DNA of 64,000 nucleotides. It comes from a virus. Of this stretch, positions 47,578 through 64,000 are shown piece after piece; position 1 is the first letter of the stretch, and each line of letters begins with the position of its first letter. The position numbers and the translations under genes were made by a program. The DNA lies in IMG/VR virus record IMGVR_UViG_3300043803_000951, positions 4,473 through 68,472 of that record, one strand, 5' to 3'. The notes below the pieces were generated by a model. It searched no databases, was not told the origin of the DNA, and saw nothing but the letters and a program-made list of their open reading frames with translations.

Positions 47578-50500
47578 ATGCCGCAATATCAACTGGTTGA
47601 CAACGAGACGGGCCGCGAACTTCTGGTAGAATCGGATTCCCCGCCAACGGAGGCGGAGGTTTCCAAGCTATTCCAGAACCACGACGCCTTCAAGGTGGCC
47701 ATTGCCGGCCCCAAAGGCTCGGAGGAACGCCGCCGGGTAATGGCGCGGGAGGTGGCTGACCAATCCCGCCAAACCTTCACCGAGGAATCGGGTGGATCAA
47801 CTGCCGGCCCCCTGCTGAGCGGAACAGCATCGCTCGGCCAAAGCCTTTCCGCTGCTGGCACAAAGATTCTCGGTGGCGCAGCTTCCGGATTCGAGATGCT
47901 GAAGGAGGGCCTTGGTGCACCCGAGGGTGGATTTTCGCTTCCGGAGCCGGGCAAGCTACCAAGAACTCCAGCCGAAGTTGAGCAGGACATTCAGGCAAAT
48001 CAGGTTCGCCAGCAGGCCAGAGAGCTTCAGGCCCAAGCTGAGGCGACTTACCCGGTAAACCCGAAATATCCTTGGGCAAATCTTCCCGGTCAGGTTGTTG
48101 GGTCGGTGGCGCAAATGCTGGCGACTGGTCCTGCCAGAATCCCAGCCTACGCCCTGAGCGCATTGGAGGGTGGTATGGAGCAGGCCCGTGAGTCTGGAGC
48201 AACACCGGCCCAGGTCCAAGCCCAAGGACTCGTAGAGGCTGCTACTGGCGCCGTCAGCGAGAAGCTGCTGGGCCTTGCCCCATTCCTGAAGGATGCGGGG
48301 AAGATGACGGCCCGCCAATTTGCCCGTCAGGCCCTCACCCCCACTGCGGGGAAGGTTGCCCTTCAGGAAGCCATCCAAGAGCCCACTGAGGGCATCCTGA
48401 ACCGATTGTCGTCCAAGTATGTGACGGGCGCGAATCCAGATGAGGCTGTGTGGGACCCGCAAACCCTCGCCATGGAAGCGGTTGGGGGTGGGTTAGGTGG
48501 TGCGGGCCTGTCAATCCCCACCCTCGCCGGGGCAAAGATTCAGCGGCAGCGGGATGTAATGGGGCGCCGGGAACTTGGATTGGCTGGCCGTTCCGAGCAG
48601 CAGCTCCAAGCTGAGCTGGAAGCGTTCAACCAAGGAATCCAGCAATCCCAACTGACCGGAGGTGGTGTGGAGCTTGTGCAACAGACGGGTGATCCTTACC
48701 GGAACCAGCTCAACCTGTCCGCCCAGAACGCCCCGCCGCAGTTTCAGATGGTAACGTCTCCGCGGACTGCCCGGGGATTGCTCAGAAGCGAAACCGACTC
48801 AGGGCTTGGAGACTTTGCGCCCCCGGATGGTCGCACCCCCATCGACCAGTTCATTGGCCGGACCCGCCAAGCTGCCGTCCCCAGTGCTGAGGATCGCCGG
48901 GCTGCCCTTGAGGCTGGCCTGACTCTCCCGCAGGATACTGGCAAGTTCGCTTCGGACGAGCCCCAAGTGGCTATCCCTCCCCGCTACGCCCAAGCCCCGC
49001 AGCTTGCCTCCCTCGGCACTACGCCCCGGACGGCAATGACCACCTCCCCGATTGATGAGGCCATCATGGGCGGACGGTTGCAGCGGTCTACTCTTCCCCC
49101 AATCAACCCGCAGCTCCAGCAGCTTCAGGACTTGGCGGAATCCGAGCTGAACGCGATTGAGCGGTTCCCGAACCGGGACACCAACCGCCGGGATTCCCTG
49201 CTTGGGGCAGCCCCGCAGGTGGTCCAGATGCTGGACACCCGAATCAACAACTCCATCGGCAAGGTGAGTGACGCGGAGGTTGGGCGGTTGATGGATTTGC
49301 GGGAACGGCTGGCCAAGTTCTACAACGACCAGACGGCCTACAATGAGCTGACGGCTGAGGCGATTGGGGTTGCCCGCGATACCCGCCGTCCGGCTCCGCA
49401 GATGGCGGCTGGTCTTTCCCAACTGGAACAATCCCGGCAAGCCCAGTTCCCTGCCGGCGGTGCGGCTGTCCAGCCTGAGCAGCCACAATCCATCCAACCC
49501 CAAGGCGACTTGATGGCTCGCCTCCGCGAGGCTCGCCAGATGGACGTTCTCCGCCAACCCTCCCCGATGAGCGCGGCCCAACTGGGGACTGGCCAGCCGG
49601 TGGGTGGGCCTCCCGCAGTGGCGGACCTGACCCCGTTCCTCCAGTTCTATGAGGCGCAGGCGTCTGCCCCGCAGGCTCCTGTTCAGGCAGCACCAGAAGC
49701 TCCCGTAACCCAATCCGCCCCCGTCCGTCGTGGGGTGCGGATGCGGGCCAAGACTTCCCGTTCAATCGGGATGAGTAGAAAGCCCTCGCAAACCATCACC
49801 GGCTCCAATGTGCAAACGGGCACTGAAATGCCGGTGCTCCCCACGGGAGGCGAGGCGCCCATTTCCCGCACGGAATCGAAGCCAAGGCAGATGAGTGATG
49901 AGGAGCTTGCCGCCATGAAGGTGGCAAAGCTGAAGGGCGCCGAGCATCGTGGTGATGGAATCACGTTCGTTCCGGAAAAGTTGATGACTCCGGAGCGGCG
50001 TAAGGCAATGAAGCGCGGTGGCTCACTGATTGAGGTCAAGCCAATGGCTGATGTCACCGGCGTTCAAACCGACCGAGGATACGCCATCTTGGACAGGCGG
50101 TCACGGATTGCATTCAGGGGCAATGAGCCGGTTCAAGCCGAAGCTGTTGACGCCTATGGAATAAAGCCCCCCAAAGGCTACGTTCGCCAAGGTGAACTCT
50201 ACGTTTACCAACCCATTTCCCGCAGCGAACCTGCGGCGGCCCAAGGAGTCGCTACCGAGGGGGTCGGGGTTTCCTCATCCGAGGAGACCCCGGCTTTCGG
50301 GGTTCGTCGCTACGGGGATGCGCTGTTCATCTCCATCGCCGAATACAACCGGCTCCGCCCGCAGATTGATGAGCGGCTGGCTGCCGGGGATGAGGTAGCC
50401 AAGCGGATTGACGACATCGAGGTGAACGCGGAGCAATACGTCCGCTCCTCGGCGGGCTTCGGAGCCCTGACTCCCGAAGGGCAGGAGCAGGCCGTCGGGA

Positions 50501-53500
50501 ACTTCAAGACCAAGCTCTACCAGTCGGCCGCCAAGTGGCTGGCTGGTGGGGAGTTCCAGTTCTCCCCTCCCGTCATCGCCAAGTCCGTCGCCATGGACAT
50601 CGGCAAGAGCGTGGCTGAGAAAGACCGCAAGCGCACCCAGTCGGGTGAAACTTCCGAGGAAGATGGGGAGGAGGTTCGCGGGGACTTTGAGTCCCTCAGT
50701 GAACGGGTGATGCCCAAGCAACCCCTGAAGGCGCCTCCTGCCATCAGGAAGGCCGACCAGGACATTGTGTTGGTAGTTGCGAATGTTCGCCGACAATTCG
50801 GACTAAACGAGGCCCAGATGGCAAGAATCATGGGTGCATACGTTGACCCGGAGATGGAGGCCAATCTGGACGACGAGGAGCTGGGTGTCCTTGAGCGGGT
50901 GCGGCCGATGCTGGCCCGGCTGGAGAATGTGAGGTATTCGGTTGCAGGTGGAATCCAGTTGACCGAGCAAGGCCCGTTCTACTCCCAGCTCACCCGCACA
51001 ATTCAGGGGATGGGGCAGGAGACGATGACGGTGGGGCAGGCTCGCAGCGCCATTGAGAAGGGGGCCAAGAAGGACGAGGTTGCGATGAGCGGTATTTTCA
51101 CCGACCCGCTGAGCCCTCTCTACGGGAAGCAGCCCGGGGATAAGGTGACCAAATCCGAGCTGATTGGCTACGCGCTGGAGCGGCAGGCAAAGGTGGAGGA
51201 TGTGGTGTTGGGTGAGCCCCGTGGGAAAAACCTATCCGGCACATATCAAGACCGAAAAACAGGGGAGTGGGTTGTTTCACAAAATGGACGCGAGGAGAGG
51301 TTTTCTTCACTCAATGAAGCGGCCCGGCGTGGTGATGAGTTGAACCGGATTGCTGATCAGTCCAGGGAGACCAGCTTCTCCTCCTACCAACTCCCCGGCG
51401 CGGACGAGGGGAGCTACCGGGAGATGTTTGTGACGTGGCCTTACACCGGGAAAAGCCTGCGGGTGGATTTAACGCCCGACAACAAGTGGGGTGTTTTTAG
51501 TGGAAAAACATTGCTGGAGAAATACACGGACAAAATCTACGCGGAGCACGCGCTCAAGCATCGTCTAAATTGGCGGGACGGCCATTCGCAATACGCTTCC
51601 ATCGCGAACCCCATCGTCCGCATCCGCCGCAACATCCGCACGGACGCGAACGGGAAGAAGACCTACTTCATCGAGGAGATTCAGGGGCCTCAGAAGGCCA
51701 ACCAAGAGAAGATGCCGCCAGAGCTTCGCAAGCGCATCTACGAGATCGGAATGAAGCGGGCCATCCGGGATGCCGTGGACAGCGGTGCGGACGCGATTGC
51801 TTGGACGACTGGGCAGCAGCAGGCTGACCGGTATGATTTGAGCAAGCAGGTTCTCCACGTCGCGTGGGAGAAGAACGACGACGGGACCTACAACATCAAC
51901 GCCCCTCAGCCCGACGGGAGCCCGGGGGTTTACAAGGAAGACCTGTCGCTGGATCAGGTTGAGGAGCTGGTCGGGAAGGACCTCGCCAAGAAGATTGAGT
52001 CCGGGGAAGGCCGGCAGCAGGAAAAGGACGGCGGCTACCGTAGCTGGAAGATTCTGGAGGGAGTGGACCTGATTGGTGGAGATGGCCTCAGGCGCCTCTA
52101 CGACCAGACCCTCCCCTCCATCGCGAATGATCTCGCCAAGAAGTTTGGGGTGAGGGTTGGGATGGGGGAGATTGCGACGGCTGCTAAATATCAATTCTCG
52201 CCACGAGCCGCCCGCGATGGAACAGGGAAGCCAATCCTGTTGAACGGCGTGCAGGCGTATGTTTTGCAGGACATCGCTTCCGGCGATTATCTCGCAGACA
52301 GGAACCAAAACACCTTCGCGCGAAGACCGCAGGATGGTCAGTTATTCTCAAAGGGTGAAGCTGACTCCATTGCGGACAAGAAGACTTCTGACTTTAAGGC
52401 CAACGTCCACTCCCTGGCAATCCCCGAAGCCATGAAGGCTGCGGCGAAGACTGGCCTGCCGCTGTTCTCCCTCTCCTCCCTCATCCGCGAGCCCATCGGC
52501 CTTGCCCGTGCCCAGCAAGCGGTCGCCCGGTGGAAGCAGGAGAATGGGGTGGAGGGAGCCCTCATCGAGGTGGTGGATGATCCCGAGCTGATGACCCCCG
52601 ACGGGCGGCCGGTCGCGGCGATGGTGAGGACAATCCCCGGGCAACCCCCGGTAATCACCGTCAACGCGGCCCAGATTTCCTCGGAGCAGGAGCTGATCGA
52701 GAAGCTGTGGCATGAGGCCCTCCATCCGGTCTGGGAAGATCAGGGAGTCCAGCGGGCTTGGCAGGAGGTCCTCCAGACCCTTCCCCGTAACGCCATCCAA
52801 GCTGAGCTGGCCCGTGGGTATAGCCCCCTTGAGGCCACGATGGAGGCGGCCATCAACTCCGCGGCTACGCAGGCTGCGAATACGCCCCTGCGGACGGCTT
52901 GGAAGAAGTTCCTTGATGCGGTGTGGGAGGCGATGGGGCGGGTATTTGGGTTCACCACGAAGCCCAAGGATTTCGAGAAGCTGATGGAGGAGGCGCTGCG
53001 GTCGCTGAGCCGGCCGTATAATCAGGAAGGAGAATTGCGCTACTCCGTGGCCAACACCATCGCCATGGTCAGCTCCGCCAAGGCGACCAAGGCAACCCTG
53101 GAAACCTCAGGCGACCCACAGGCTGTGGCGATGATGGGACAGGCAGCCGCCTCCCTGATCAACCCGGCGTTCAGCGACCTGATGAACCGGCTGAGCGTAG
53201 CGGAACCGGGCACCGCGGACGCCACCACCTACACCTTCCTGAAGGCAGCGGACAATATGGCTGCGTCCGGGGCTGCGGTGGTGGAGTGGGCGCAATCCCA
53301 TCAGGACCCAATCCCTGCGTTCACGAACCTGAGCGACCTCCCTACGGGCTGGCGGTCCGTGGTGGGGAATGTGGTGATGGGCGCCCACCTTCAACTGGGC
53401 CAGCAGATGGGGTCCATTGACCGGGCGATTGAGCGGGAATCCGCCAAGCTGGTGGAGGCTGCCGCGGACCTTGAGGATGCGAGCAAGGAGCGGCTGTCTG

Positions 53501-56500
53501 CTGAGGCGGCTGAGACTCAGGCGCTGGACCTACTGGACGGCCTGATGCGGACGATTGTGGTTGAGCGCAAGAAGATTGGCACCTCGTCGGCCACACTCAG
53601 CCGTCAACAGGCAGAGGACCAAGCCAAGGCAATCTTTGGCATCAAGCGCAACAAGCTGTCGGCCCTGACCATTGCCATCCAGACGATGGCGCGGGAGATG
53701 CCGGTGGAAGGGTTCGTCAACAACGAGGCTGCCCTCGCTTGGTTCGATGAGCGTCAGAGCAAGAACCCAATCCTAGGGGACAGCGCGGCGGATGTGGTGA
53801 AGGCTTTCCGGGAGGCCCTGTCCCGTCAGGCCGACCTCACCAAGCGCATCGAGCAAGTCCGGGCCTTCACGCTGGACAGTGTGGATGCGGTGCGGGAGGT
53901 GGGGGAGATTGCCAAGCTGATCGGCAAGAACAAGAAGGCCACCATCAACAACTACGCCAAGCTCCGCAGCGAATACGAGGCTGGGTTCCGTCGGTTCAAG
54001 CTGGCATCCAAGAAAGCCACCGACGCCTCTACGCGCCTTGACGGGCTGCTGGCGGCCAAGGAAGCCCTGAGTGGGCTGATGGCCTCACCTGAGTATCTGG
54101 AGAAGACCAATGACGCCTTCCTGCGCGGCCGGGGCAGCCTCAGCGGGTTGATGAGCGAGGTGAAGAGTGATGGGCGGCCGACCGGGGTGGTGGAGGTCTA
54201 TGGTCCCTCTGCCTACGTGGCGGCCGGAAACCGGGTGGCCAAGGACAAGGACCTCGCGGCTCTCCGTCGCAACTCCACAATTGAGACGTGGGGGAAGAAG
54301 GGGAAGGAGAAGTCCGGCACCATCTACGAGATCGACTACCGACCTGACTTCGCCATCGAGGCCAAGAATGTGGAGGCCATCGACCGGTTGTCCCAAGAAA
54401 TCACGCAGGCCCTGAACGACGAGTCCTCCCCGTTCTACCTGACGGACCCGTTGGCTAGGTCGTCCTACACCCAACTGGGAGCCTACCTTGCCCAGTTTGT
54501 GGCGACCAACCGCTACCTCATCGAGCAGCAGTTGTCGGACACGATGCTGCTGACCGTCCTGAAGGGCGGACGAATCTTCTCCGGTAAGGCGGGAATCCTG
54601 AGTGCGTTCGGGGGCGCCCTCTACACCACCCGAATGAATGCTGCCCGTGCGATTGGTGGGCGGGGTGGGATGGAATGGGAGAAGGCCAACCGGGCATCCG
54701 ACCTCTTCGAGAAGAAGGCCGGCAACGTCCTCAAGGCGACCCGGGTTGAGAACGCAGTGGCCCGACGTAAGGCCATCGAATCCCACGGGCTGAACCCGGA
54801 CAGCCGGGAAGGGATTGCCCAGTGGTCGGCCCATATCTCCTCCGTAATTGGCTCCTTCCAGAACCCGTCGCAGGACCGCCTAAAGGAAGGTGACTATGTG
54901 GGCGGGATGGTGGTGACAAAGGAGGACCTCAAGTCCGCCGAGATTCAGAAGAAGTTCTCCACCGGGGTAGTGGGCGACTTCTCGTCCATGACGGCTGACC
55001 TGAGCGAGGTGGTGAATCCCGAGGAGAAGTTTGGCAGCGGGGATTCCGCCGTCCTGTTCACCCGTGCGGCCGAGGATTACGGGCTGAAGACCCGCCGCCA
55101 GTTCTCCCAATGGGGCCGGCAGTTCAAGGAAGACTGGGCCACCGCATCCGAGAAGGACCTCGAAGCCTTCCGGCTTAATCAGGCTCAGTCGACCGGGGAT
55201 GAACCGGTGCCAATGGTCTGGACTGAGCGCGAGAAGCTGGCCGACCGGGAGATCGAGGGGCCGGTGTATTCCCACCTGACGGAGACGAACCAAGAATACT
55301 CCAGCAAGGCGCCCGCTTCCATCCGCCCGGCTTATGCGCGGCTCCGTAGCGCCATCAAGGCTGGCCGTGGACCCAAGACCGTCGAAGGTATCGGCGAAGC
55401 CATCTCCCAGCTCACGTCGGACGCGGAAGGCAATGCGACCATCGACCCCATCACGGCCAAGGAAGCCTTGCTTGGAGCGATTGATTTGGACGTGAATGCA
55501 ATTGGCAAGGCCATCGGGGAATGGCACCAGTCCACCCTCGGAAACTCCGACCTTCCCGATGTCCTCATCGGCGTCAAGGCGGCCAACGGGGCACTCGCCC
55601 TAGCCCGTGGAAAGATGGTGGCCCCGACGTGGTTCTATGACTACGGCCTCCACGACGACATGGAGCGGGCGGTGTTTGTGGCGCAAGGCAAGCGCATCCT
55701 GCTGATGAAGGTCTACGAGACGATGGGGACCTTCAAGGAAGCGGTCCGCCGGAACCTTGATGAGGCCAATCGGGAGATCGAGGAGAACGCCAAGAAGCGG
55801 AAGGCGAACGGGGATGTGGTTGGCTACGACGCAGCCGAGGCTGAATACGACAAGAAGTCCAAGGCCAAATACCGGGACGGCGGGGAGTTTGCCACCCGGA
55901 AGGGACTCCAGCGTTCCTTCGACACGCTCGAAGCCCTCCAGTCCGAGCTGAAGTCGGTCCTTCAGGTGGCCAATGAGGCAGCGGTGGACCAGCTCAAGGC
56001 AAGGACGATTGGTTCGCTGGCTAGGCTCCAAATCTCCGTGCTGCTGTCCAGCGTATCGTCCATCCTGAACAACATGACCGCGGTGGTTGCTGACCCATGG
56101 CGAACCTGGTCCCAGAGCGAGAGGTTCTTCCTGAAGGTTGGCAAGACCACCAAGGCGGTGAAGAACGCCTTCAAGTTCATGGCCAGCGACATGGTGGCAA
56201 GGCTCCCTGCATCAATCCGCAACAAGCTCACCAAGAAGCGGAAGATGGTGCTGATCTCAACCGTTAGCGACTTCCTGAGAACCATGATGGCGGAGCGGGA
56301 CATGATGGAGCAGACCGGCCAGTTCGAGGAATTCGAGTCCATCAAGGACAAGGTTGCCGCCATCCGGGCCAACCCCCTGTCGTTCGGCCAGTCCACCACC
56401 ATGGAATCCTCCAAGTTCGAGCGGGCCATGAGCTGGCTGTATAGCAAGGCCATCTACGGGGTGGCTGTGGCTGAATGGGTGCGGGACCGGGCTCCCGGAT

Positions 56501-57894
56501 ACTTCGACAAGGTTATCAACCGGGTGCTGGCCGAGGATGCCAAGGAGTTCGAGCTGTGGCTGTCCCCCCATCTGTGGAACTGGGCTCGTAACCAGCCCGG
56601 AGCAACCGTTGAAGAGAAGATCGAGAATGCCCGCAAGTCAGTCATCCGCGGCAGCGATCTTGGAATCAGTGACGAGAACATAGCCTCCATCCGCGACTTC
56701 ATGAGTGCGGCTGGATCGCTGGAGTCGATGGCAATCCGGCTGCTGTCTGACAACGGGGACAAGAAGATGACCACGAAGAAGTCCTCCCTGAGCGATGGCG
56801 AGCTTCAGTCCGTCCAGTATGATGCTGGCCGGAAATACAACGTCCGCGCTTCCTCAACCTCCCCCGACGTGATGAAGGGTGGGCCGGGCATCAAGGGCAC
56901 GTTCAAGAATATCCTCCACACCTTCCTGAGCTGGACTTTCCACCGCATGGGGACGGACGCCAACCAGTTCTTCAAGAAGCGCGGCGGCGGATGGAAGAAG
57001 GAGGTAACGGCTGCATGGGGAGTCGCGATGCTGGTCTTGGCCACATTGCTCCTTGGCGCCATGGTAAAGATTCCGAAGGACATCTGGCGCTGGGTCACAG
57101 GCGATCCCGCCACGACCCCCAATATCCTCCAGGCTGTGGACAGCCCTGAGATGGCCATGCGCTACATGGCGGCATCAACCGCCCCGGTATTCCCGATTGG
57201 TGGTCAGGTCATCGCCGAGATGATGGGCGGGTCTGGTATCTCCAGCCCGCTGGACAACAACGTGCTGGACAACAACCCCCCAGCCCAGTTCCTCGCCTCC
57301 ATGGTCCAGACGGGCCAACGCATCTACCAGACGGGCGACCTCAAGTATCCGCTGGTGGACTTTGCCCGGAAGAACTTCTGGCCCGCCGGACTGGTCCTGA
57401 ACCGGGTAATGGAAGGGGATACCGAAGCCCGGGCTGCCAAGCGGGCTGTCCGGATGGCGGCTGCGGGGATGGAGGTCAGGCCGTCCGGAAGTGGAATTGG
57501 TTCCCGGGAAACTCCCATCACCCCCATCACCCGGAACGCCATCGCAGCCCTCTACGAGGGGGACACCGGGGCCTTCAATACGGCCAGGGAGAAGGCGATT
57601 GCCCACTACGTGGGTCAGGGGAAGACGCCCAAGGAGGCGGCCAAGCGGTTTGATTCCTCGGTGAGTGGGCGGGACCCGCTGCGATCTGTCCTTGGCCGGA
57701 ATCCCACCGAGGAGGAGGAAGCTACTATCCTCCGCCGGCTCAACCCCAGCCAGCGCCGGGCAGTCGGGAAGTCCCGGTCGCTGTTCCGCAAGCCCAAGAA
57801 GATCAGGTTGGGTAGGAGCAAGTCGCGGAAGGTCCGCCTTGGCAGGAAGCGGCCCGCTCGGCGTTCCTTGCGATTGCGGCGAGCTGCCTCTTAG
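47578..57894 (+). CDS. Giant polyvalent internal virion protein (3438 aa)
   Basis: FYSQL..., YFIEEIQG nuclease-like motif, WHEALH zincin motif, RYS/LFS linkers, C-terminal hydrophobic helix and basic tail. Confidence 0.8.
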   Translation: MPQYQLVDNETGRELLVESDSPPTEAEVSKLFQNHDAFKVAIAGPKGSEERRRVMAREVADQSRQTFTEESGGSTAGPLLSGTASLGQSLSAAGTKILGGAASGFEMLKEGLGAPEGGFSLPEPGKLPRTPAEVEQDIQANQVRQQARELQAQAEATYPVNPKYPWANLPGQVVGSVAQMLATGPARIPAYALSALEGGMEQARESGATPAQVQAQGLVEAATGAVSEKLLGLAPFLKDAGKMTARQFARQALTPTAGKVALQEAIQEPTEGILNRLSSKYVTGANPDEAVWDPQTLAMEAVGGGLGGAGLSIPTLAGAKIQRQRDVMGRRELGLAGRSEQQLQAELEAFNQGIQQSQLTGGGVELVQQTGDPYRNQLNLSAQNAPPQFQMVTSPRTARGLLRSETDSGLGDFAPPDGRTPIDQFIGRTRQAAVPSAEDRRAALEAGLTLPQDTGKFASDEPQVAIPPRYAQAPQLASLGTTPRTAMTTSPIDEAIMGGRLQRSTLPPINPQLQQLQDLAESELNAIERFPNRDTNRRDSLLGAAPQVVQMLDTRINNSIGKVSDAEVGRLMDLRERLAKFYNDQTAYNELTAEAIGVARDTRRPAPQMAAGLSQLEQSRQAQFPAGGAAVQPEQPQSIQPQGDLMARLREARQMDVLRQPSPMSAAQLGTGQPVGGPPAVADLTPFLQFYEAQASAPQAPVQAAPEAPVTQSAPVRRGVRMRAKTSRSIGMSRKPSQTITGSNVQTGTEMPVLPTGGEAPISRTESKPRQMSDEELAAMKVAKLKGAEHRGDGITFVPEKLMTPERRKAMKRGGSLIEVKPMADVTGVQTDRGYAILDRRSRIAFRGNEPVQAEAVDAYGIKPPKGYVRQGELYVYQPISRSEPAAAQGVATEGVGVSSSEETPAFGVRRYGDALFISIAEYNRLRPQIDERLAAGDEVAKRIDDIEVNAEQYVRSSAGFGALTPEGQEQAVGNFKTKLYQSAAKWLAGGEFQFSPPVIAKSVAMDIGKSVAEKDRKRTQSGETSEEDGEEVRGDFESLSERVMPKQPLKAPPAIRKADQDIVLVVANVRRQFGLNEAQMARIMGAYVDPEMEANLDDEELGVLERVRPMLARLENVRYSVAGGIQLTEQGPFYSQLTRTIQGMGQETMTVGQARSAIEKGAKKDEVAMSGIFTDPLSPLYGKQPGDKVTKSELIGYALERQAKVEDVVLGEPRGKNLSGTYQDRKTGEWVVSQNGREERFSSLNEAARRGDELNRIADQSRETSFSSYQLPGADEGSYREMFVTWPYTGKSLRVDLTPDNKWGVFSGKTLLEKYTDKIYAEHALKHRLNWRDGHSQYASIANPIVRIRRNIRTDANGKKTYFIEEIQGPQKANQEKMPPELRKRIYEIGMKRAIRDAVDSGADAIAWTTGQQQADRYDLSKQVLHVAWEKNDDGTYNINAPQPDGSPGVYKEDLSLDQVEELVGKDLAKKIESGEGRQQEKDGGYRSWKILEGVDLIGGDGLRRLYDQTLPSIANDLAKKFGVRVGMGEIATAAKYQFSPRAARDGTGKPILLNGVQAYVLQDIASGDYLADRNQNTFARRPQDGQLFSKGEADSIADKKTSDFKANVHSLAIPEAMKAAAKTGLPLFSLSSLIREPIGLARAQQAVARWKQENGVEGALIEVVDDPELMTPDGRPVAAMVRTIPGQPPVITVNAAQISSEQELIEKLWHEALHPVWEDQGVQRAWQEVLQTLPRNAIQAELARGYSPLEATMEAAINSAATQAANTPLRTAWKKFLDAVWEAMGRVFGFTTKPKDFEKLMEEALRSLSRPYNQEGELRYSVANTIAMVSSAKATKATLETSGDPQAVAMMGQAAASLINPAFSDLMNRLSVAEPGTADATTYTFLKAADNMAASGAAVVEWAQSHQDPIPAFTNLSDLPTGWRSVVGNVVMGAHLQLGQQMGSIDRAIERESAKLVEAAADLEDASKERLSAEAAETQALDLLDGLMRTIVVERKKIGTSSATLSRQQAEDQAKAIFGIKRNKLSALTIAIQTMAREMPVEGFVNNEAALAWFDERQSKNPILGDSAADVVKAFREALSRQADLTKRIEQVRAFTLDSVDAVREVGEIAKLIGKNKKATINNYAKLRSEYEAGFRRFKLASKKATDASTRLDGLLAAKEALSGLMASPEYLEKTNDAFLRGRGSLSGLMSEVKSDGRPTGVVEVYGPSAYVAAGNRVAKDKDLAALRRNSTIETWGKKGKEKSGTIYEIDYRPDFAIEAKNVEAIDRLSQEITQALNDESSPFYLTDPLARSSYTQLGAYLAQFVATNRYLIEQQLSDTMLLTVLKGGRIFSGKAGILSAFGGALYTTRMNAARAIGGRGGMEWEKANRASDLFEKKAGNVLKATRVENAVARRKAIESHGLNPDSREGIAQWSAHISSVIGSFQNPSQDRLKEGDYVGGMVVTKEDLKSAEIQKKFSTGVVGDFSSMTADLSEVVNPEEKFGSGDSAVLFTRAAEDYGLKTRRQFSQWGRQFKEDWATASEKDLEAFRLNQAQSTGDEPVPMVWTEREKLADREIEGPVYSHLTETNQEYSSKAPASIRPAYARLRSAIKAGRGPKTVEGIGEAISQLTSDAEGNATIDPITAKEALLGAIDLDVNAIGKAIGEWHQSTLGNSDLPDVLIGVKAANGALALARGKMVAPTWFYDYGLHDDMERAVFVAQGKRILLMKVYETMGTFKEAVRRNLDEANREIEENAKKRKANGDVVGYDAAEAEYDKKSKAKYRDGGEFATRKGLQRSFDTLEALQSELKSVLQVANEAAVDQLKARTIGSLARLQISVLLSSVSSILNNMTAVVADPWRTWSQSERFFLKVGKTTKAVKNAFKFMASDMVARLPASIRNKLTKKRKMVLISTVSDFLRTMMAERDMMEQTGQFEEFESIKDKVAAIRANPLSFGQSTTMESSKFERAMSWLYSKAIYGVAVAEWVRDRAPGYFDKVINRVLAEDAKEFELWLSPHLWNWARNQPGATVEEKIENARKSVIRGSDLGISDENIASIRDFMSAAGSLESMAIRLLSDNGDKKMTTKKSSLSDGELQSVQYDAGRKYNVRASSTSPDVMKGGPGIKGTFKNILHTFLSWTFHRMGTDANQFFKKRGGGWKKEVTAAWGVAMLVLATLLLGAMVKIPKDIWRWVTGDPATTPNILQAVDSPEMAMRYMAASTAPVFPIGGQVIAEMMGGSGISSPLDNNVLDNNPPAQFLASMVQTGQRIYQTGDLKYPLVDFARKNFWPAGLVLNRVMEGDTEARAAKRAVRMAAAGMEVRPSGSGIGSRETPITPITRNAIAALYEGDTGAFNTAREKAIAHYVGQGKTPKEAAKRFDSSVSGRDPLRSVLGRNPTEEEEATILRRLNPSQRRAVGKSRSLFRKPKKIRLGRSKSRKVRLGRKRPARRSLRLRRAAS

Positions 57895-58195
57895 TCAGCT
57901 TCTTGCTGGATAGATGGGAGAACGGGCGGTCCTTCGACTTGCTCGTTCTCCTGATGTATTTGCGGAGCTTGGATAGGTCCGAGAACTCGTAGCCACAACC
58001 CCGCAGGAAGTCGTCCACAACCCAAATTGGCTCGTCCGCCCATTCCGGTTGCTGGGAAATCCAAGAAACAACCCCAACTGGAAGTCCAGACTTATTCGCG
58101 ATCTCCTTCAGGGTCATGGGCTTCCCCCTCCCGCTCCGGGCGCTCATGCGGACTACGGGAGGGGGGAACTCGTTCAGGATGGAGAGGAGGGTCAT
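57803..58195 (-). CDS. HTH (XRE-like) DNA-binding protein
   Basis: MTLKEIANKSGLPVGVVSWI; 3' end overlaps giant gene convergently. Confidence 0.6.
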   Translation of the reverse strand: MTLLSILNEFPPPVVRMSARSGRGKPMTLKEIANKSGLPVGVVSWISQQPEWADEPIWVVDDFLRGCGYEFSDLSKLRKYIRRTSKSKDRPFSHLSSKKLTKRQLAAIARNAERAASCQGGPSATCSYPT

Positions 58196-58260
58196 TTGTG
58201 GTTGGTGGTGGTCTGGTAGCCAATATCGCCGCAATTTTGTGGCTCACTCAACTGTTCGGG

Positions 58261-58575
58261 CTATTCATCCGCGTAGTCCGCACAGTATTTTTCCCACGTT
58301 ATCGGCGTCGCCTTCATGCCTTCGCATCCCGGCAGTCCGCTCGCCACGAGCTTTGCCACCGTGTCGGCGCATTGCTCGTCAGTCGGCACTTTTCCGCACG
58401 GGCCAATTTTCAGTTTCACGCCAGCCTCACAAGGATTGCCCTGCTCATCTTCTCCGAGGCCAAAGACCTCGAAGAGCAGCAGGATGCTTTGTTCGTCCGC
58501 AGCCCAGCGCCAGCCAAGCCCGAACCTGTCAGTGGATCCAACGGCTACGCCGTCGGCGGTTTCAGTGGTATTCAT
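58261..58575 (-). CDS. Cassette 1 hypothetical protein
   Basis: ATG inside attC loop; stop next to the GTT core site. Confidence 0.7.
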   Translation of the reverse strand: MNTTETADGVAVGSTDRFGLGWRWAADEQSILLLFEVFGLGEDEQGNPCEAGVKLKIGPCGKVPTDEQCADTVAKLVASGLPGCEGMKATPITWEKYCADYADE

Positions 58576-58617
58576 AGTTTTTTCTCGGCGTAGCCGTGGC
58601 TCACTTCGGCGTTAGCT
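58519..58617 (+). other. attC-like site A
   Basis: CCCGAAC...GTG(G)ATCCA(A)CGGCTACGCCG / CGGCGTAGCCGTGGCTCAC...GTTAGCT. Confidence 0.8.
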
Positions 58618-58968
58618 GCCTTGCGGTGCGTCCATCACCCACACGATGTCAGACAGTCGCACGTCCACGCCACGCTCGGCGGGATAGGCGATTCGGTTGG
58701 CCTCTGGCTGTTCGTCCATCGGCTTGATGTCGAGATGCACCCATTCCTTGTTCAGCACTTTCGCAAATGAGAAGTCTATCACTTCCCCTGTGCGAAGCTT
58801 CATGGCGTAGTCGAAAGGGTCTTGGCACGCCTTGGCGAGAGCCGCACTTCCGGTCAGGATTTCGATTAGTCTGCCTTCCTCATTTTCATACGGTTCACCG
58901 GCAGCTAACAAGTCGCTGGAGGCAACAGCGCCCCCGCCTTCTGTTTTCGTTTGGTCTTGGTTGTTCAT
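58612..58968 (-). CDS. Cassette 2 hypothetical protein
   Basis: DPFDYAMKLRTGEVI...RGVDVRLSDIVWVMDAP; TAA stop lies in the core site. Confidence 0.75.
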   Translation of the reverse strand: MNNQDQTKTEGGGAVASSDLLAAGEPYENEEGRLIEILTGSAALAKACQDPFDYAMKLRTGEVIDFSFAKVLNKEWVHLDIKPMDEQPEANRIAYPAERGVDVRLSDIVWVMDAPQGS

Positions 58969-59028
58969 ATATTTTTGGTGTTGTCGGAGTCTTCCGCCGG
59001 GGCGCTGTGCCTCAGCTTGTCGTTAGGT
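58903..59028 (+). other. attC-like site B
   Basis: AGCTAAC...TG(G)AGGCA(A)CAGCGCCCC / GGGGCGCTGTGCCTCA...GTTAGGT. Confidence 0.85.
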
Positions 59029-59306
59029 GTCTCGCCGTAGATGCACGCAAAGTTTCCATCCGTCTCGACGCTATCCACGGTTGCGCCTTCCCATCCGCCG
59101 GAAGCGGTGATCGTGATGCCGTGTCGCAGCCGCACACAGACGCCATCCCACCATCCCTTGTCTGGTTCTTGGTTTCGGTCATACATTTCGCCCCATTCAG
59201 GGTTTGGCGTTTTCCAGTGCTTGCAGTCCCGACACCTAACCAGGGCGGTGCAGCGAATGACGCCGGGCGCATCTGGTTTGCAATCAGGAATCTTGGGTGG
59301 CGTCAT
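58965..59306 (-). CDS. Cassette 3 Cys-rich hypothetical protein
   Basis: CRDCKHW...GVC...FAC; ATGA overlaps inside attC sites at both ends. Confidence 0.7.
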   Translation of the reverse strand: MTPPKIPDCKPDAPGVIRCTALVRCRDCKHWKTPNPEWGEMYDRNQEPDKGWWDGVCVRLRHGITITASGGWEGATVDSVETDGNFACIYGETPNDKLRHSAPAEDSDNTKNI

Positions 59307-59327
59307 CGCTGACCTTTCTCGTTCGGC
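59234..59327 (+). other. attC-like site C
   Basis: ACCTAAC...GGT(G)CAGCGA(A)TGACGCC / GGCGTCATCGCTGACC...GTTCGGC. Confidence 0.85.
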
Positions 59328-59842
59328 TTCAAGAACGCGATCCAATGCGTCTGCGCCTGCTTGCCAGACTTGTGACCATAGAGCGGCAACATCGGTGTGA
59401 GCTTCAAGATTTCCGAGACGGGGTTTTCCGTGGCCGTCCACTTAAAGATGAGCGTGCCGCCCGGCTTGAGCACGCGGAAGCCCTCCGCGAATCCGGCGGC
59501 AATCATCTTCCGCCAGTCACCATCGAGCCACCCGTATTTCATCGCGAGGAATCCGATTTTTCCCGACCGCTCGAAGTGCGGCGGGTCGAACACGACATGC
59601 AGGAAGGTTTCATCCTCGAACGGCAGGGCAGTGAAGTCCGCGAGGATGTCCGGGTCGGTTTCCGTCCATTCTACCGTCCCGCGCTTCGGGCGGTTCATCG
59701 CGTGGCGTTCGCGGCGACGGTCAGAGAACACGGCCCGAGGGTCTTCTTTGTTGAACCACATCATGCGCGGGCCGCAGCACATATCCAGCACTGAAGCCGA
59801 ACCATGCGTTGCACCGGACGCCGTGGGCGATTCCGCCATCAT
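59303..59842 (-). CDS. Cassette 4: SAM-dependent amino-methyltransferase (probable DNA m6A/m4C)
   Basis: VLDMCCGPRMMWF, VVFDPPH, RVLKPGGTLIFKW. Confidence 0.85.
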   Translation of the reverse strand: MMAESPTASGATHGSASVLDMCCGPRMMWFNKEDPRAVFSDRRRERHAMNRPKRGTVEWTETDPDILADFTALPFEDETFLHVVFDPPHFERSGKIGFLAMKYGWLDGDWRKMIAAGFAEGFRVLKPGGTLIFKWTATENPVSEILKLTPMLPLYGHKSGKQAQTHWIAFLKPNEKGQR

Positions 59843-60489
59843 AGCATGATCCTCTCATACACCCCTGCCGTGGCCCGAAGATCATTCCGAAGATAATCCA
59901 GCGCACTTTCCGGGGCTTCCCGGTAAATACGGGCGAAGTGCGCCCCATTCCCGGTCTTCCCAGGAATCCCCAGCGCCTTGCAGACCGCATCCAGCCCATT
60001 CCCGGAGCGTTCCCGCCCCATCACCACCTCCTCCATGAGGTCAACGAAGTTGTCGTTCCAGTAGGAGCGACCACGAAACCGGTCAAGGAATCGCCCGGTG
60101 GGAATCCCGTGGACCGCACAGCGGAAGCGGATGAAGGGGAGGTCGAAGCCCTTGATGTTGAACCCACCCACCGCAATCTGCTGCTGTAGATACACGTTCA
60201 ACTGGCTGACAATCTTCCGCAGCGTGTCCTTCTCGTCATCCCCGTGGGCCAGCAGCAGGTCGCCATTAGGCTTACGGACGCCGGCTGCGATGACGAACCC
60301 CGTCAGCGGACTTAGGGCTGCGTCGCGGATGCGGGCTTCCTTCTTCTCCTCGATGGATGCCTTGATCTTCTCGGGGTCCTTGAGGTTCGCGGCGGCCTTG
60401 AACTCCGGCATGGAGGCGGCCAGTTGATCCTCGGGGAGCGGGGAGGTTTCGATGTCGAAGACGGCGTAGTCTGAGTTTGCTTGTTCCAT
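59839..60489 (-). CDS. DEDD 3'-5' exonuclease (PolB exonuclease-like)
   Basis: FDIET, GFNIKGFDLPFI, LDAVCKALG, YLRND. Confidence 0.85.
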   Translation of the reverse strand: MEQANSDYAVFDIETSPLPEDQLAASMPEFKAAANLKDPEKIKASIEEKKEARIRDAALSPLTGFVIAAGVRKPNGDLLLAHGDDEKDTLRKIVSQLNVYLQQQIAVGGFNIKGFDLPFIRFRCAVHGIPTGRFLDRFRGRSYWNDNFVDLMEEVVMGRERSGNGLDAVCKALGIPGKTGNGAHFARIYREAPESALDYLRNDLRATAGVYERIML

Positions 60490-60492
60490 AGG

Positions 60493-60669
60493 TCAGTTGA
60501 TTTTGCGGATGTTGGATGGCCCGTAGATGTGGAGGAATCCAGGCTCATGCTCCACCACATACCGGGTCTTCCCCGCCTTGGTGGTGAATACGGAGCGGAC
60601 TTCGCCCGTGAGTTGGAAATCTCCGGTGAACTTCTCCACCCGGTCGCCGATTTTGATTTGGTCTTCCAT
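60493..60669 (-). CDS. Small SH3-like hypothetical protein
   Basis: IGDRVEKFTGDF...RYVVE...LHIY. Confidence 0.65.
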   Translation of the reverse strand: MEDQIKIGDRVEKFTGDFQLTGEVRSVFTTKAGKTRYVVEHEPGFLHIYGPSNIRKIN

Positions 60670-60679
60670 TTGTAGTTTG

Positions 60680-60905
60680 TCAGTCAAAAGTAAAACCCCC
60701 ATTCCACGTAGTAACTGTCCAGAAACACCGCTTCCTGAGGGTATCCGCCCCACACGGGGAGGACAAATTGGATGGGCACTTGCCCCAAGTTCAGCGCACT
60801 CCCGTCTTGTCACGGGCGGTCCAAACGCCAGAAGGCGGCAACAGCGCGGCAGTTGACGAATGCGCTGAACTTGAGAGACAGGTCCTTGCCCGGCCTGTCA
60901 GCGGG
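60680..60905 (-). ncRNA. Candidate structured non-coding RNA
   Basis: 16-bp inverted repeat 60786-60801/60858-60873 plus other hairpins in a 240-bp intergenic gap. Confidence 0.35.
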
Positions 60906-60913
60906 ATTGTGGA

Positions 60914-61528
60914 CTAGGCCCAGTCGTCCGGTTCGGTCTGGGACGTGGAACCTGCGGCGACGAGCTTCTTGTATTCCTCACTCGCAACAACCTTCTTCTC
61001 CAGCCACTCAGGCAGCTCGGCCACCTTCAAGTCCTCGGGGGATTCAAGTTGGGCGACGGTGAAGGTTGTGGGGACTGTCTTGGCGACAATCTGCTGGCCC
61101 TTAGGGGCGGGCAGGATCGCGGTGATGTTGGCGTAGGTCTTCCCATTGCTGTCCTCATGGAGGACGTTAACCTGACAGGGACGACCCACCAGCTTGCTCA
61201 CGTCGAAGGCGTTGGCCACCTCGTCGGACGGGAACGACTTGCCGAACCAGCTCTCAATGGAGGGACGCAGCATACCCTTCGGGTGCATGGAGGCGGTGAA
61301 CGTCTTGCTCAGGCAGCGGGGCTCGTCCGGCTGGCCGTCCCGCTTGACGGGGGGCTGGTCGGGGAGCTCGAACTGGAGGACGTATTTGCGCTTGGTCTTG
61401 CCAAACTTCTCGTCGATGTGGGTGCCGATGTCGAACAGTCCGACACAGACTGCGGGGTGGACACCGGGCTCGACCGAGGGGCCTGAATTTGCACCGGCGC
61501 CGGGGATGAATGGGTTTGTGGTAGTCAT
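60914..61528 (-). CDS. Putative ssDNA-binding/replication protein
   Basis: AVCVGLFDIGT...SKTFTASMHPK...FDVSKLVGRPCQVNV; acidic-aromatic tail EPDDWA. Confidence 0.7.
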   Translation of the reverse strand: MTTTNPFIPGAGANSGPSVEPGVHPAVCVGLFDIGTHIDEKFGKTKRKYVLQFELPDQPPVKRDGQPDEPRCLSKTFTASMHPKGMLRPSIESWFGKSFPSDEVANAFDVSKLVGRPCQVNVLHEDSNGKTYANITAILPAPKGQQIVAKTVPTTFTVAQLESPEDLKVAELPEWLEKKVVASEEYKKLVAAGSTSQTEPDDWA

Positions 61529-61561
61529 TGTGATTTTGAATTGAACCGTTGTTGACGACGT

Positions 61562-61628
61562 GAGGTTGGGTCGGATGACGGAAGTTGTCAATAGGCAACT
61601 TGACATTCCTTGGGATCGGACGCAGTTT
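61562..61628. promoter_or_regulatory. Back-to-back divergent sigma70-like promoters
   Basis: TTGACA on minus strand (61586-61591, 17 bp, CAACCT) and plus strand (61600-61605, 17 bp, CAGTTT). Confidence 0.55.
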
Positions 61629-61636
61629 TTCCGCCG

Positions 61637-61909
61637 ATGAAGTTCGGTCGCAACTACATGAGCAAGGTGGACTGGAAGCTCCAGGATTCCGTCCTTGCCC
61701 GCAAACTGGGATGCAGCCCCACCACCGTATGGAGATGGCGGAAGGCCCTCCGGCAACCCAACCCGTTGATGTATCGTGCCCATCCCGGCCTATCCAAGAA
61801 CAACAGGCGGGAGGGGTGGGACTGGTCGCTGAGGGATGTGGACCTTGCCAAGAAATACAAGCTGAGCCGGGAGCGGGTGCGACAAATCAGAAAGGCCCTT
61901 GGGAAATGA
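61637..61909 (+). CDS. Double-HTH DNA-binding protein
   Basis: LARKLGCSPTTVWRWRK and LAKKYKLSRERVRQIRK. Confidence 0.7.
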   Translation: MKFGRNYMSKVDWKLQDSVLARKLGCSPTTVWRWRKALRQPNPLMYRAHPGLSKNNRREGWDWSLRDVDLAKKYKLSRERVRQIRKALGK

Positions 61910-62271
61910 CCTTCAACCCCGAAACCATAGCGGCCGTGGAATCCCTCCTCGCCCACATCCGGGCTGGAACTCCACGTCCAGAAACCATCGCCCACGAAAC
62001 CCCCATCAACCCCGTGGAGCTGGAGGAGGTTGTCAACCACGGGTCCATGAAGTTCCTGCCTGCCGATCTGGACATCCTCGCCGAGGCGGGCAGTGAGTGG
62101 ATGGTGAGGAACCGTAAGCCTGACAAGAACGGGATGATGCCCCCGCTTCAGGTCAAGCAGTGGAGGACCGTGATTCGCCATCGACTTTTTTGGGCCTCCC
62201 TCACAGCCCCATCTTCCGCGTGGGCAGCCTCAACCCTGTGCAATCCCATCGCGGCTCACACGAACCTGTGA
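61906..62271 (+). CDS. Hypothetical protein
   Basis: Coupled starts and stops. Confidence 0.6.
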   Translation: MTFNPETIAAVESLLAHIRAGTPRPETIAHETPINPVELEEVVNHGSMKFLPADLDILAEAGSEWMVRNRKPDKNGMMPPLQVKQWRTVIRHRLFWASLTAPSSAWAASTLCNPIAAHTNL

Positions 62272-62450
62272 CCGCTGCGGAAGCCATCGCCTCCGTTGAC
62301 GCTGGCAAACCCATCAACCCCGACGACTACGACCAACTCATCCGGGCTGCCACTGGCGACTACGGAAGTCCCGAACGATTCAAGCTGTCCGTCTACCGCA
62401 AACTGAACCAACTGCTATGGGAAAAACAGAAGCCAAAGAAATCCCGCTGA
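62268..62450 (+). CDS. Small hypothetical protein
   Basis: GTGA overlap. Confidence 0.5.
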   Translation: MTAAEAIASVDAGKPINPDDYDQLIRAATGDYGSPERFKLSVYRKLNQLLWEKQKPKKSR

Positions 62451-63049
62451 TCGCCCTTACCGGCTACTCCCGCTCCGGGAAGGACACCGCTGCCGACCAC
62501 CTCGTATCCTTGGGCTACGAGCGACGGGCCTTCGGGGACATCATCAAGGGGTTGGTGAGGGATGCTGGGCCGACAACCTTCCGGTTCTTCAAGGACTGGC
62601 TATTGGACACCGGCCGCAACCAGCTCCGCATCTCCGAGATCGCCTACGGGTGGAGCTTGGTGAAGCTGTGCGGGGTGGACCCGTTCACGCAGGACGACGA
62701 GGTGAAGCCGAACCTTCGAGCCCTGCTGGAGGACTACGGGATTTACCGCTACGATGAGGTGAACCGGCTATTCTTCTCCACCCTGCCATCCAAATGTGTC
62801 AATAGTCGCCTCTGCCGGGCTCAGGAGGCCCGCGAATGGAGGGACCGAGGTGGTGTGCTGGTCGAGGTGGTCCGACCCGGTGGCAAGCCTCACACGGACC
62901 AGGAACGACGGTGGGTGGAGGAACTCCATGAGGCCGGCGCAATCGACACGATCCTGAAGAATGACGATTCCATCGACAGGTTGAACCGGGCCATCGCGGC
63001 CATTGCTTCCGGCAAGGCTTCAGGGATTGTCAGCGCATCCAGCCTATGA
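62417..63049 (+). CDS. Deoxynucleotide monophosphate kinase-like P-loop protein
   Basis: IALTGYSRSGKDTAADHL...RAFGDIIK...VEVVRPG...LKND. Confidence 0.8.
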   Translation: MGKTEAKEIPLIALTGYSRSGKDTAADHLVSLGYERRAFGDIIKGLVRDAGPTTFRFFKDWLLDTGRNQLRISEIAYGWSLVKLCGVDPFTQDDEVKPNLRALLEDYGIYRYDEVNRLFFSTLPSKCVNSRLCRAQEAREWRDRGGVLVEVVRPGGKPHTDQERRWVEELHEAGAIDTILKNDDSIDRLNRAIAAIASGKASGIVSASSL

Positions 63050-63243
63050 AAACCTTCCAGGACTACCTCGAATCCGTGGAGCGCAACAACCCGTCCATGG
63101 TGGGGAGGAAGCTCACCCTCCACTGGGATTCGCTGGAGCGGCTCCTTGAAAGCGCCTATCGTCAAGGGCGTGAGGACGGGACCGAGCCAATTCATGGGGC
63201 GAATAGCTCAATGCCGGACTTCATGAGGGGATTTTTCAAATGA
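63046..63243 (+). CDS. Hypothetical protein
   Basis: ATGA overlaps. Confidence 0.6.
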   Translation: MKTFQDYLESVERNNPSMVGRKLTLHWDSLERLLESAYRQGREDGTEPIHGANSSMPDFMRGFFK

Positions 63244-63500
63244 CTGCCGAACAACAAGACGACAACGAGCGCAACCAGTTGATGGCGATGATGACCGCTG
63301 TGGTCGCCAAGCTAGGGGAACACTTCGGCTCCGTCCGCATCATTGCTACCCGGGAGAATAACGGGGATACCGAGTCATTCACTGTGGGTTCTGGAAACTA
63401 CTTTGCCCAGCTAGGGTCCGCGTTGGAGTGGGTGGACAAGCAGCGTGAACAATCCCGGCTGGAGAAGCAGGATGAGTGGGATGGCGAGGATGAGGGCTAG
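63240..63500 (+). CDS. Hypothetical acidic protein
   Basis: LGEHF.SV.I...GSGNYFA. Confidence 0.65.
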   Translation: MTAEQQDDNERNQLMAMMTAVVAKLGEHFGSVRIIATRENNGDTESFTVGSGNYFAQLGSALEWVDKQREQSRLEKQDEWDGEDEG

Positions 63501-63740
63501 TCGCAGTCGGGTGGATCGAAAACCCAGCTAGCCACCTCCTCGGGATTCGCTGATGTCCCCGTCGTCTCGTCCAGATACGGGTTGGCCGTCGAGCACTCCA
63601 GGCTGTCCTCCCTCAGCGGCAGGCACTCGCTCAAGCAGACGCAGCAAGTGGGTTGCGGCAAGTCGTTGGTGGGCAAGCCCATTGGCCGACACTCCACCCA
63701 GCCACCGCTCGATGGCAAGCCTTTCCTTGTTGTTCATTGG

Positions 63741-64000
63741 TCAGCCCTTTCTGATTGGGCGGTAGTGGGGGATTGAGGCGACCTTGCCAAGGGTCCTAAT
63801 GCGGAATCTGCGCGACTCCATCTTGCCAGCGCGGACCGCATCGGCAAGGAAGTGGGAGGTCGTGGAGATTGCCTTTTCCATCTCACGGGCGATCTCGTTC
63901 GAGGTCAGCCAACCCTCTGGAACCTCATCGGTTGAGGACTGCTTAATCTCCTTATGAATCCTCAGCAGGAGGTCCTTTGTTGAAATGGCTTTCGGGTTCA
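63741..64000 (-). CDS. Winged-HTH-like protein, 5' end at window edge
   Basis: Hand translation ...VPEGWLTSNEIAREMEKAISTTSHFLADAVRAGKMESRRF...PHYRP. Confidence 0.55.
   Translation of the reverse strand, partial: NPKAISTKDLLLRIHKEIKQSSTDEVPEGWLTSNEIAREMEKAISTTSHFLADAVRAGKMESRRFRIRTLGKVASIPHYRPIRKG

Follow-up and report, generated by a model that had tools for sequence, protein, structure and literature searches.

Integron cassettes are usually described as an open reading frame (ORF) followed by a non-coding recombination hairpin, with one promoter in the platform. Can such a recombination site at the same time form the junction between two protein-coding genes? This question is raised by a four-gene array in a virus record (IMG/VR record IMGVR_UViG_3300043803_000951). 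We analyzed a stretch of 64,000 nucleotides of this DNA, here called the window (bases 4473–68472 of the 68,472-base record, which has an estimated completeness of 91%); coordinates are window positions unless another locus is named. Four minus-strand genes, g4 (encoding an orphan DNA methyltransferase), g3, g2, and g1, are separated by three hairpins, sites C, B, and A, that resemble the attC sites of integron cassettes. The array departs from the usual picture in that the hairpin stands before the gene, carries its start codon and first 13–25 residues, and receives the end of the upstream protein. An earlier note on this DNA had proposed that these sites act as translational couplers and supply interchangeable protein termini. 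We conclude that the region 58216–59860 is probably an integrase-less cluster of attC sites (CALIN) inside a minus-strand phage operon, in which one recombination site would double as a protein-coding gene junction.

Hairpin sites at the gene junctions

Published attC sites have conserved AAC and GTT triplets within R boxes (RYYYAAC/GTTRRRY) and an unpaired central spacer of 5–6 nt (Nivina 2016, PMC5027507; Nivina 2020, PMC7439510). As described in these papers, they are 57–141 bp long and are cut between A and C, and their two or three extrahelical bases include position 16 (usually G) and position 23/24 (a conserved T), with a 6-bp stem in between. In the top strand it is the AAC arm that carries the bulges, and in the bottom strand the other arm (PMC5027507; PMC7439510); the variable terminal structure covers 3–100 nt (Nivina 2020, PMC7439510).

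On the coding strand, sites A, B, and C all read AAC, a spacer of 5–6 nt, 5′ arm, loop, 3′ arm, a spacer of 5–6 nt, and GTT. Site A (58523–58613, minus strand, 91 nt, 18 bp with a 12-nt perfect inverted repeat) comprises AAC at 58611–58613, a 5′ arm at 58586–58605, a loop at 58553–58585, a 3′ arm at 58531–58552 with a bulged T at 58541, and GTT at 58523–58525. Site B (58907–59024, minus strand, 118 nt, 19 bp) has its AAC at 59022–59024, the 5′ arm at 58999–59016, a loop at 58935–58998 that holds an ATGA at 58965–58968, the 3′ arm at 58915–58934 with a bulged T at 58925 and a bulged C at 58919, and GTT at 58907–58909; its stem runs 4 bp, C, 5 bp, T, 7 bp, a bulged G, and 3 bp. In site C (59238–59323, minus strand, 86 nt, 16 bp), AAC at 59321–59323 is followed by a 5′ arm at 59299–59314 with an ATGA at 59303–59306, a loop at 59265–59298, a 3′ arm at 59247–59264 with a bulged T at 59257 and a bulged C at 59250, and GTT at 59238–59240, the stem being 3 bp, C, 6 bp, T, and 7 bp.

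By their predicted structure, the sites of the window fit the published attC on all structural points except the identity and the exact position of the first bulge. Their lengths and AAC and GTT ends agree with those of attC sites, as do the unpaired spacers (5/5 nt in A, 5/5 in B, and 6/6 in C), and the loop lengths of 33, 61, and 34 nt (A, B, and C) lie inside the published range. The bulges are confined to the 3′ arm, where 3–4 bp, the first bulge, and 5–6 bp precede a bulged T (spacing between the bulges 5 bp in B, 6 bp in C). This T is at position 23 (A and B) or 24 (C) from the outer end of the 7-nt GTT box. Ten of 12 aligned sites of this family have it at position 23 and two have it at 24, in a MAFFT alignment that has the 5′ ends of four long sites out of register.

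A custom scan of the whole window (AAC, 4–7 nt, stem, 4–7 nt, GTT) returned sites A, B, and C as the sole matches, compared to a mean of 0.025 sites of at least 16 bp in 40 Markov-1 sequences of equal length. The RNA of the three site junctions is predicted to fold at -31.4, -39.4, and -42.4 kcal/mol (z = -3.5, -5.6, and -3.2, the -5.6 being that of site B), and none of 200 shuffles folded as well. Control junctions gave z +0.85 (exonuclease gene/g4) and +0.90 (the next one upstream), and DNA folds reproduced the same stems as the RNA folds. No Rfam family matched 57500–61000 at E-values up to 1.

Two further sites at the ends of the array, D and Z, were read from the sequence and may be regarded, in our reading, as decayed. 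Of site D (59792–59860, minus strand) only the 3′ half is left, ..GCAACGCATG followed by GTTCGGCTTCA; it contains the ATG of g4 and the stop codon of the exonuclease gene, lacks the AAC box and a matching 5′ arm, and is the site of the z +0.85 fold. The same motif, ..CGCATGGTTC, occurs twice in locus L017. Site Z (58216–58262, minus strand), after g1, has an AAC box at 58254–58262 and a short GTGAGCCA/TGGCTAC hairpin (58240–58247 with 58216–58222) with no GTT box after it; it was missed by the custom scan.

Gene bodies, polarity, and related arrays

All four gene bodies are bounded by a perfect inverted repeat that starts with GTT and ends with AAC, so that the ends of each cassette are complementary. 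The paired ends are GTTCGGGCT / AGCCCGAAC for unit U1 (58254–58525; 9 nt, 58254–58262 with 58517–58525), GTTAGCTGCC / GGCAGCTAAC for U2 (58611–58909; 10 nt, 58611–58620 with 58900–58909), GTTAGGTGTC / GACACCTAAC for U3 (59022–59240; 10 nt, 59022–59031 with 59231–59240), and GTTCGGCTTCA / TGAAGCCGAAC for U4 (59321–59802; 11 nt, 59321–59331 with 59792–59802). U3 and site C together form a cassette at 59023–59321. When we scanned for perfect GTT.../...AAC inverted repeats of at least 9 nt that are 150–700 nt apart, the window yielded 5 pairs against a random mean of 2.05 per 64 kb; 4 of these 5 are consecutive within 1.55 kb, where about 0.05 would be expected for such a span.

Next to homologues of g3, the repeat pair changes on both sides: it is GTTAGGTGTC/GACACCTAAC in the window and in L053, GTTCGGCT/AGCCGAAC in L059 and L063, and GTTGGGCT/AGCCCAAC in L061. 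At 6 of 13 loci with g3 relatives, we found a repeat of at least 7 nt whose two arms lie close to the match ends; among these six, the AAC arm of L064 lies about 60 nt beyond the match end, and a hit in L060 that falls inside the match was left uncounted. We considered and dropped dif modules, terminal repeats of transposons, and sites of a shufflon or invertase, as the repeats are unit-specific with only GTT/AAC in common, and inversion of a unit would wreck its ORF.

In sites A–C, the coding strand has its bulges on the arm opposite AAC and is therefore the bottom strand of attC. It follows that the crossover would be at the AAC end of each site, and that each cassette would consist of its own attC and then the ORF. 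N-terminal leaders would therefore travel with their own gene, and only the C-terminal tails would depend on the neighbor. None of the four ORFs is on the top strand with an attC downstream. As a control, the same code was applied to the Vibrio anguillarum chromosomal integron in phage record MK672802, with 15 repeated attC sites and ORFs mostly annotated on the plus strand; in 14 of the 15, the basal bulges fall on the 3′ arm when the strand opposite the ORFs is read.

Homologous cassettes bear on this polarity. Public protein sets contain 27 members of the g3 family, which keep the core from CRDCKHW to NFxC and differ in length and sequence at the N-terminus; g3 relatives are encoded at 13 metagenome loci. 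In one of these, L053, the segment 59325–59022 is shared with the window at 86.5% identity and nothing else is shared in the 1.9 kb compared. The shared span corresponds to site C plus the g3 body, and each of its limits is no more than 4 nt from an AAC triplet. The near-identical loci L054 and L055 have 59322–59020 in common with the window, apart from a 33-nt gap inside the site, and again the ends are within 4 nt of AAC triplets. Since all three loci share site C together with the g3 body, the attC is upstream of the ORF and travels with it, in line with the bottom-strand assignment. The opposite assignment, in which the coding strand would be the top strand and the leader would belong to the upstream cassette, is excluded by the literature, the Vibrio control, and the L053 boundaries.

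The same comparisons bear on the earlier note, which had expected conservation to stop at the PN dipeptide. In the g3 family, PN is present in 13 of 27 members at the aligned position and the later tails are unrelated, as expected; after PN, L053 reads KQICNQ..., compared to DKLRHS... in the window. The proposal of interchangeable termini stands for the C-terminal tails only, which vary with the neighbor (the L053 tail differs), as the N-terminal leaders move with their own gene.

In locus L061, five sites of the same orientation lie within 3.1 kb, and the ORFs between them are found on either strand. The locus resembles an ordinary array with only a subset of its cassettes reversed. In 3 of its 5 sites the first bulge is a G after 3 bp (position 16). 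The site before its g3 homologue is 72% identical to site A of the window and provides this homologue with the leader MNTNETT... (MNTTETA... in g1). L061 also contains long (122-nt), GC-rich sites of a second subtype (L061:2920–3041, 2070–2191, and 221–388). On the opposite strand of these sites, ORFs open with a recurring N-terminus, MPEPHAA.SG.PVTSTL; one of them encodes a 147-aa membrane-like protein.

All 15 relatives of g2 in IMG/VR match to the last residue, and 13 of the 15 begin to match only at residue 20–34. Loci L002–L004 finish with the same ..AGCTAAC as g2, and their homology to the window ends there. In L005, L006, L009, and L011 a g2 homologue directly follows the exonuclease gene, without g4 or g3. 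In phages with this arrangement, L005 (3403–3485) and L008–L010 (approximately 3509–3587), a site of 15–16 bp with the AAC...GTT frame is found just upstream of the start of the next gene. The presence of such sites near the next gene in these phages suggests that this genome position is a recurrent home for them.

The methyltransferase gene shows a different pattern. L017 shares a block of 473 nt at 97% identity (approximately 99% in the central 445 nt) with unrelated flanks. All differences in its last 12–18 nt, at either end, are synonymous; as the block does not end at the triplets, it looks like homologous exchange. L018 and L020 have the g4 gene at 79% identity with hairpin sites of their own. 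In L018 a hairpin element of about 55 nt, in which GAC replaces AAC, is repeated on both sides of the methyltransferase gene (2425–2500 and 2960–3040). Two successive ORFs receive from it an identical C-terminal tail, PTAGGEA, and its stem and loop contain a GGAGG, a GTG start codon, and a GTGA overlap. Thirteen lake or freshwater metagenome runs (X11–X23) each contain exactly 0.22 of the words of the stretch; in run X12 the shared part is the methyltransferase core (window 59325–59797) in an L017-type context at a depth of 27, and the L017-type phage may be widespread.

No relatives of g3 or g1 were found in IMG/VR (by pattern scan) or in GTDB genome contigs, and none of g3 among GenBank phages. 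When GenBank phages were searched with the array for distant DNA matches, only the methyltransferase core was returned. L032, whose exonuclease is 77% identical, is the closest relative; its sequence breaks off about 110 nt past the exonuclease gene, before the array.

With an ordinary compact operon, the inverted repeats would have arisen by chance or would be short patches of homology that serve phage mosaicism. Inverted repeats of 12–13 nt are indeed not rare (15 pairs in the window), and the block shared with L017 ends within a gene. We consider this explanation highly improbable, as it is disfavored by the number of sites of at least 16 bp (three, against 0.025 expected), the four consecutive GTT/AAC pairs within 1.55 kb, the same geometry in unrelated contigs, the covariation of the repeats, and the homology limits at AAC. 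Structure, scan, and homologue limits together support the view, put forward before, that the junction hairpins have attC architecture and act as cassette boundaries.

Reading frames across the sites

The methyltransferase gene g4 (59303–59842, minus strand, 179 aa) matches PHROG 954 (E-value 2.6e-63, residues 15–176). Its body is U4, its leader comes from the remnant site D, and its last 5 residues and stop codon are read from site C. The protein matches 252 GenBank phage records, and 14 of the 15 among the matches listed end at residue 172. The gene g3 (58965–59306, minus strand, 113 aa), with the CRDCKHW...NFxC core, has its ATG in the 5′ arm of site C and takes its last 18 residues from site B; its AlphaFold model is poor (predicted local distance difference test score, pLDDT, 57). 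For g2 (58612–58968, minus strand, 118 aa, relatives at 15 IMG/VR loci), the ATG is in the loop of site B and the stop codon TAA overlaps the AAC triplet of site A. The last gene, g1 (58261–58575, minus strand, 104 aa), starts in the loop of site A and has its own stop before the next AAC; its two homologues (92% and 87% identity) both keep the entire leader. No Pfam or PHROG family was identified for g1, g2, or g3.

The codon overlaps described in the earlier note are all present. A TCAT on the plus strand (ATGA on the minus strand) at 58965–58968 joins the g3 stop to the g2 start inside site B, and the ATGA at 59303–59306 joins the methyltransferase stop to the g3 start inside site C. The ATG of g1 (58573–58575) falls in the 33-nt loop of site A (58553–58585), and the g2 stop TAA (58612–58614) is the TTA of GTTAGCTGCC (58611–58620). 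N-termini are read, as had been described, from the 3′ arm, spacer, and GTT box, giving AVGSTDRFG (g1), AVASSDLLA (g2), VIRCTALVR (g3), and SGATHGSA (g4), and C-termini run past the crossover, with the tails PNDKLRHSAP... (g3) and PNEKGQR (g4) starting at the AAC triplet. The site-encoded leader makes up the first 13–25 residues. The reading phase across the GTT box varies among the four cassettes; free swapping of N-termini would mostly break frames.

In 7 of the 12 family sites an ATG within the site opens a long downstream ORF; the remaining 5 have no ORF start. In 6 of these 7 sites, the frame in which AAC is a codon has its stop no more than 7 nt from this ATG, and 4 of the 6 stops are ATGA overlaps, including one in site A that is currently unused. 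In a crude scan of 57000–64000, neither strand showed a sigma-70-like promoter and the minus strand showed no terminator; this is the one observation that bears on the suggestion of the earlier note that no Pc promoter would be needed.

Could the hairpins be mRNA elements only, for start presentation, coupling, or processing, with no role in DNA recombination? Consistent with this are the strong RNA folds (-31 to -42 kcal/mol, z -3.2 to -5.6), the start codons and stop/start overlaps within the hairpins, the A-rich loops, and the weak Shine-Dalgarno usage of the phage (14 of its 44 long ORFs, with a background of 21%). A role limited to the mRNA does not explain why AAC and GTT are invariant and fixed in their spacing, why the bulges are confined to one arm, why the gene-body ends show 9–11 nt of complementarity that covaries, why homology ends at AAC triplets, and why some family sites (5/12) have no ORF start. 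We therefore give this explanation only a small chance of being correct.

Under the preferred explanation, an integrase-less attC cluster, the array would consist of four cassettes in the order g4 (methyltransferase), g3, g2, and g1, with the intact sites C, B, and A and the decayed ends D and Z. In the coding direction a cassette would run from the C of AAC through spacer, 5′ arm, loop, bulged 3′ arm, spacer, GTT box, and ORF body to ...AA, and its own attC would supply the translation start of the gene along with the leader. The bodies of g1 and g2 stop at or before the next AAC. Those of g3 and g4 read AAC as Asn and continue into the attC of the neighbor, where an in-frame TGA overlaps the ATG of that neighbor. 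Ribosomes finishing the upstream ORF may open the hairpins in the mRNA, and so couple translation along a promoterless array transcribed from the operon. More tentatively, the variable loop of one attC lineage might have become a general-purpose junction between genes, with an A-rich translation start in the loop and a stop codon in the frame that has the crossover AAC as Asn. Cassettes with antisense ORFs could then be stacked in any order as a coupled, promoterless operon, and phages could reshuffle accessory (probably anti-defense) genes whose proteins read through active sites.

Recombinase, genome context, and known systems

Several observations weigh against the assignment of the array to the integron family. 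Each of the four ORFs is antisense relative to the orientation that cassettes usually have. The first bulge in sites B and C is a C at position 17, not a G at 16, and the full RYYYAAC/GTTRRRY consensus fits only 2 of the 6 R boxes (ACCTAAC in site B and GTTAGGT in site C); AGCTAAC, GCCGAAC, and GTTAGCT are one position off, and GTTCGGG is two off. To our knowledge, strict conservation in natural attC sites is limited to the triplets. The custom scanner, when unanchored and at its thresholds, detected 0 of the 15 genuine Vibrio attC sites and worked only when anchored on known ends, which makes it specific to unusually well-paired sites and not a general attC finder. In L017 the block of approximately 99% identity stops 5–18 nt inside the arms and not at AAC/GTT, and in L020 the site downstream of the methyltransferase gene folds weakly (z -0.2). 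The integron integrase model (TIGR02249) had no match in the present record (G000, 91% complete) or in five related records, and no attI-like site was identified. As neither intI nor attI was found beside the array, it is classed as a CALIN and not as a complete integron. The tyrosine recombinase of the phage (342 aa, G000:C1:4181–5209; L001:1426–2454, minus strand), at the left edge of the window, is weakly XerC/XerA-like (45 bits) and scores 17.8 bits with the IntI model.

These points also bear on the possibility that the hairpins mimic attC and that the cassettes are served by another recombinase, such as this Xer-like enzyme. In its favor are the lack of an IntI match in all 6 records searched, the inverted ORF orientation compared to classical cassettes, the C as first bulge in the window sites, and the presence of the Xer-like recombinase, which is 99% identical in the close relative G006 (L066). 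G006 is the only one of the five related records that has it at this identity; against this possibility, the recombinase is absent from the other 4 (fragments), including G001 (L017), which has an intact site. In addition, the AAC/GTT triplets, the spacer length, and the T at 23/24 are exactly the IntI-specific features, and in L061 the first bulge is G at position 16 in 3 of 5 sites. On balance we regard service by another recombinase as unlikely, and retain a CALIN as the explanation.

The array is part of a run of minus-strand genes, in which the gene of a PolB-type 3′–5′ exonuclease (59839–60489, minus strand) is the upstream neighbor of g4. The host operon of the cassettes is the minus-strand early/replication operon of a lake-water phage of about 68 kb. 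A single ORF of 3438 aa (47578–57894, plus strand) converges on the end of this operon, and its product is probably a giant virion or injected protein. Two other inverted repeats of the window have no AAC/GTT frame: 60786–60801 / 60858–60873 (16 nt, 94%, 56-nt spacer), which sits between a 289-aa gene and the next ORF of the same operon, and 1400–1412 / 1453–1465 (13 nt, 100%, 40-nt spacer). Lake-water metagenomes contain DNA near-identical to the phage record, and runs X6 and X7 contain the same phage in fragmented form. Logan contigs from four metagenome runs over 57500–60600 showed no joints and no rearranged forms, and none of the 24 sequencing runs listed is of RNA.

CALINs with orphan DNA methyltransferase cassettes are known in phages (Qi 2023, PMC9892861). 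That paper is not known to report start codons or stop/start overlaps within the sites; its supplementary tables may contain similar cases. Likewise, among the papers listed by full-text literature searches, no report of attC-loop start codons or of reversed read-through cassette arrays was found. As far as these sources go, phage CALINs, methyltransferase cassettes, and frames across the attI1 crossover are known, and attC-loop starts and reversed read-through arrays would be new. If the sites are active, recombination and polycistronic translation would be combined in the same 90–120 nt, which would account for the expression of promoterless, reversed cassettes. Phage mosaicism would then be linked directly to integron biology, because the array holds a methyltransferase cassette of the kind that phages use against restriction.

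The array shares with the published phage CALINs the co-oriented attC sites between small ORFs, the lack of an integron integrase, and the methyltransferase cassettes; the typical cassettes there have the ORF and then the attC, whereas here every ORF is on the bottom strand and starts in its own attC (Qi 2023, PMC9892861). Features in common with classical attC sites are AAC/GTT, the 5–6 nt spacers, two bulges opposite AAC, the distal T at 23/24, a length within 57–141 bp, and paired cassette ends (PMC5027507; MK672802). In contrast to these, the window sites have C at 17 (B and C), unusually perfect stems of 16–19 bp, long A-rich coding loops, and antisense ORFs. The ORF-11/ORF-18 frames of attI1 resemble the array in that a frame runs over the crossover, takes its stop codon from the core site of the neighboring cassette, and is presumed to couple to the next gene (PMC8876359). 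However, attI1 has one small leader ORF that concerns the first cassette only, whereas here full-length proteins read through attC at every junction. In synthetic coding attC sites, attC structure and protein coding are likewise combined on the same DNA (Nivina 2020, PMC7439510). Those sites were designed, whereas the window sites would be natural and would also carry translation initiation regions; if active, they would be a natural counterpart of attC sites engineered into coding sequence.

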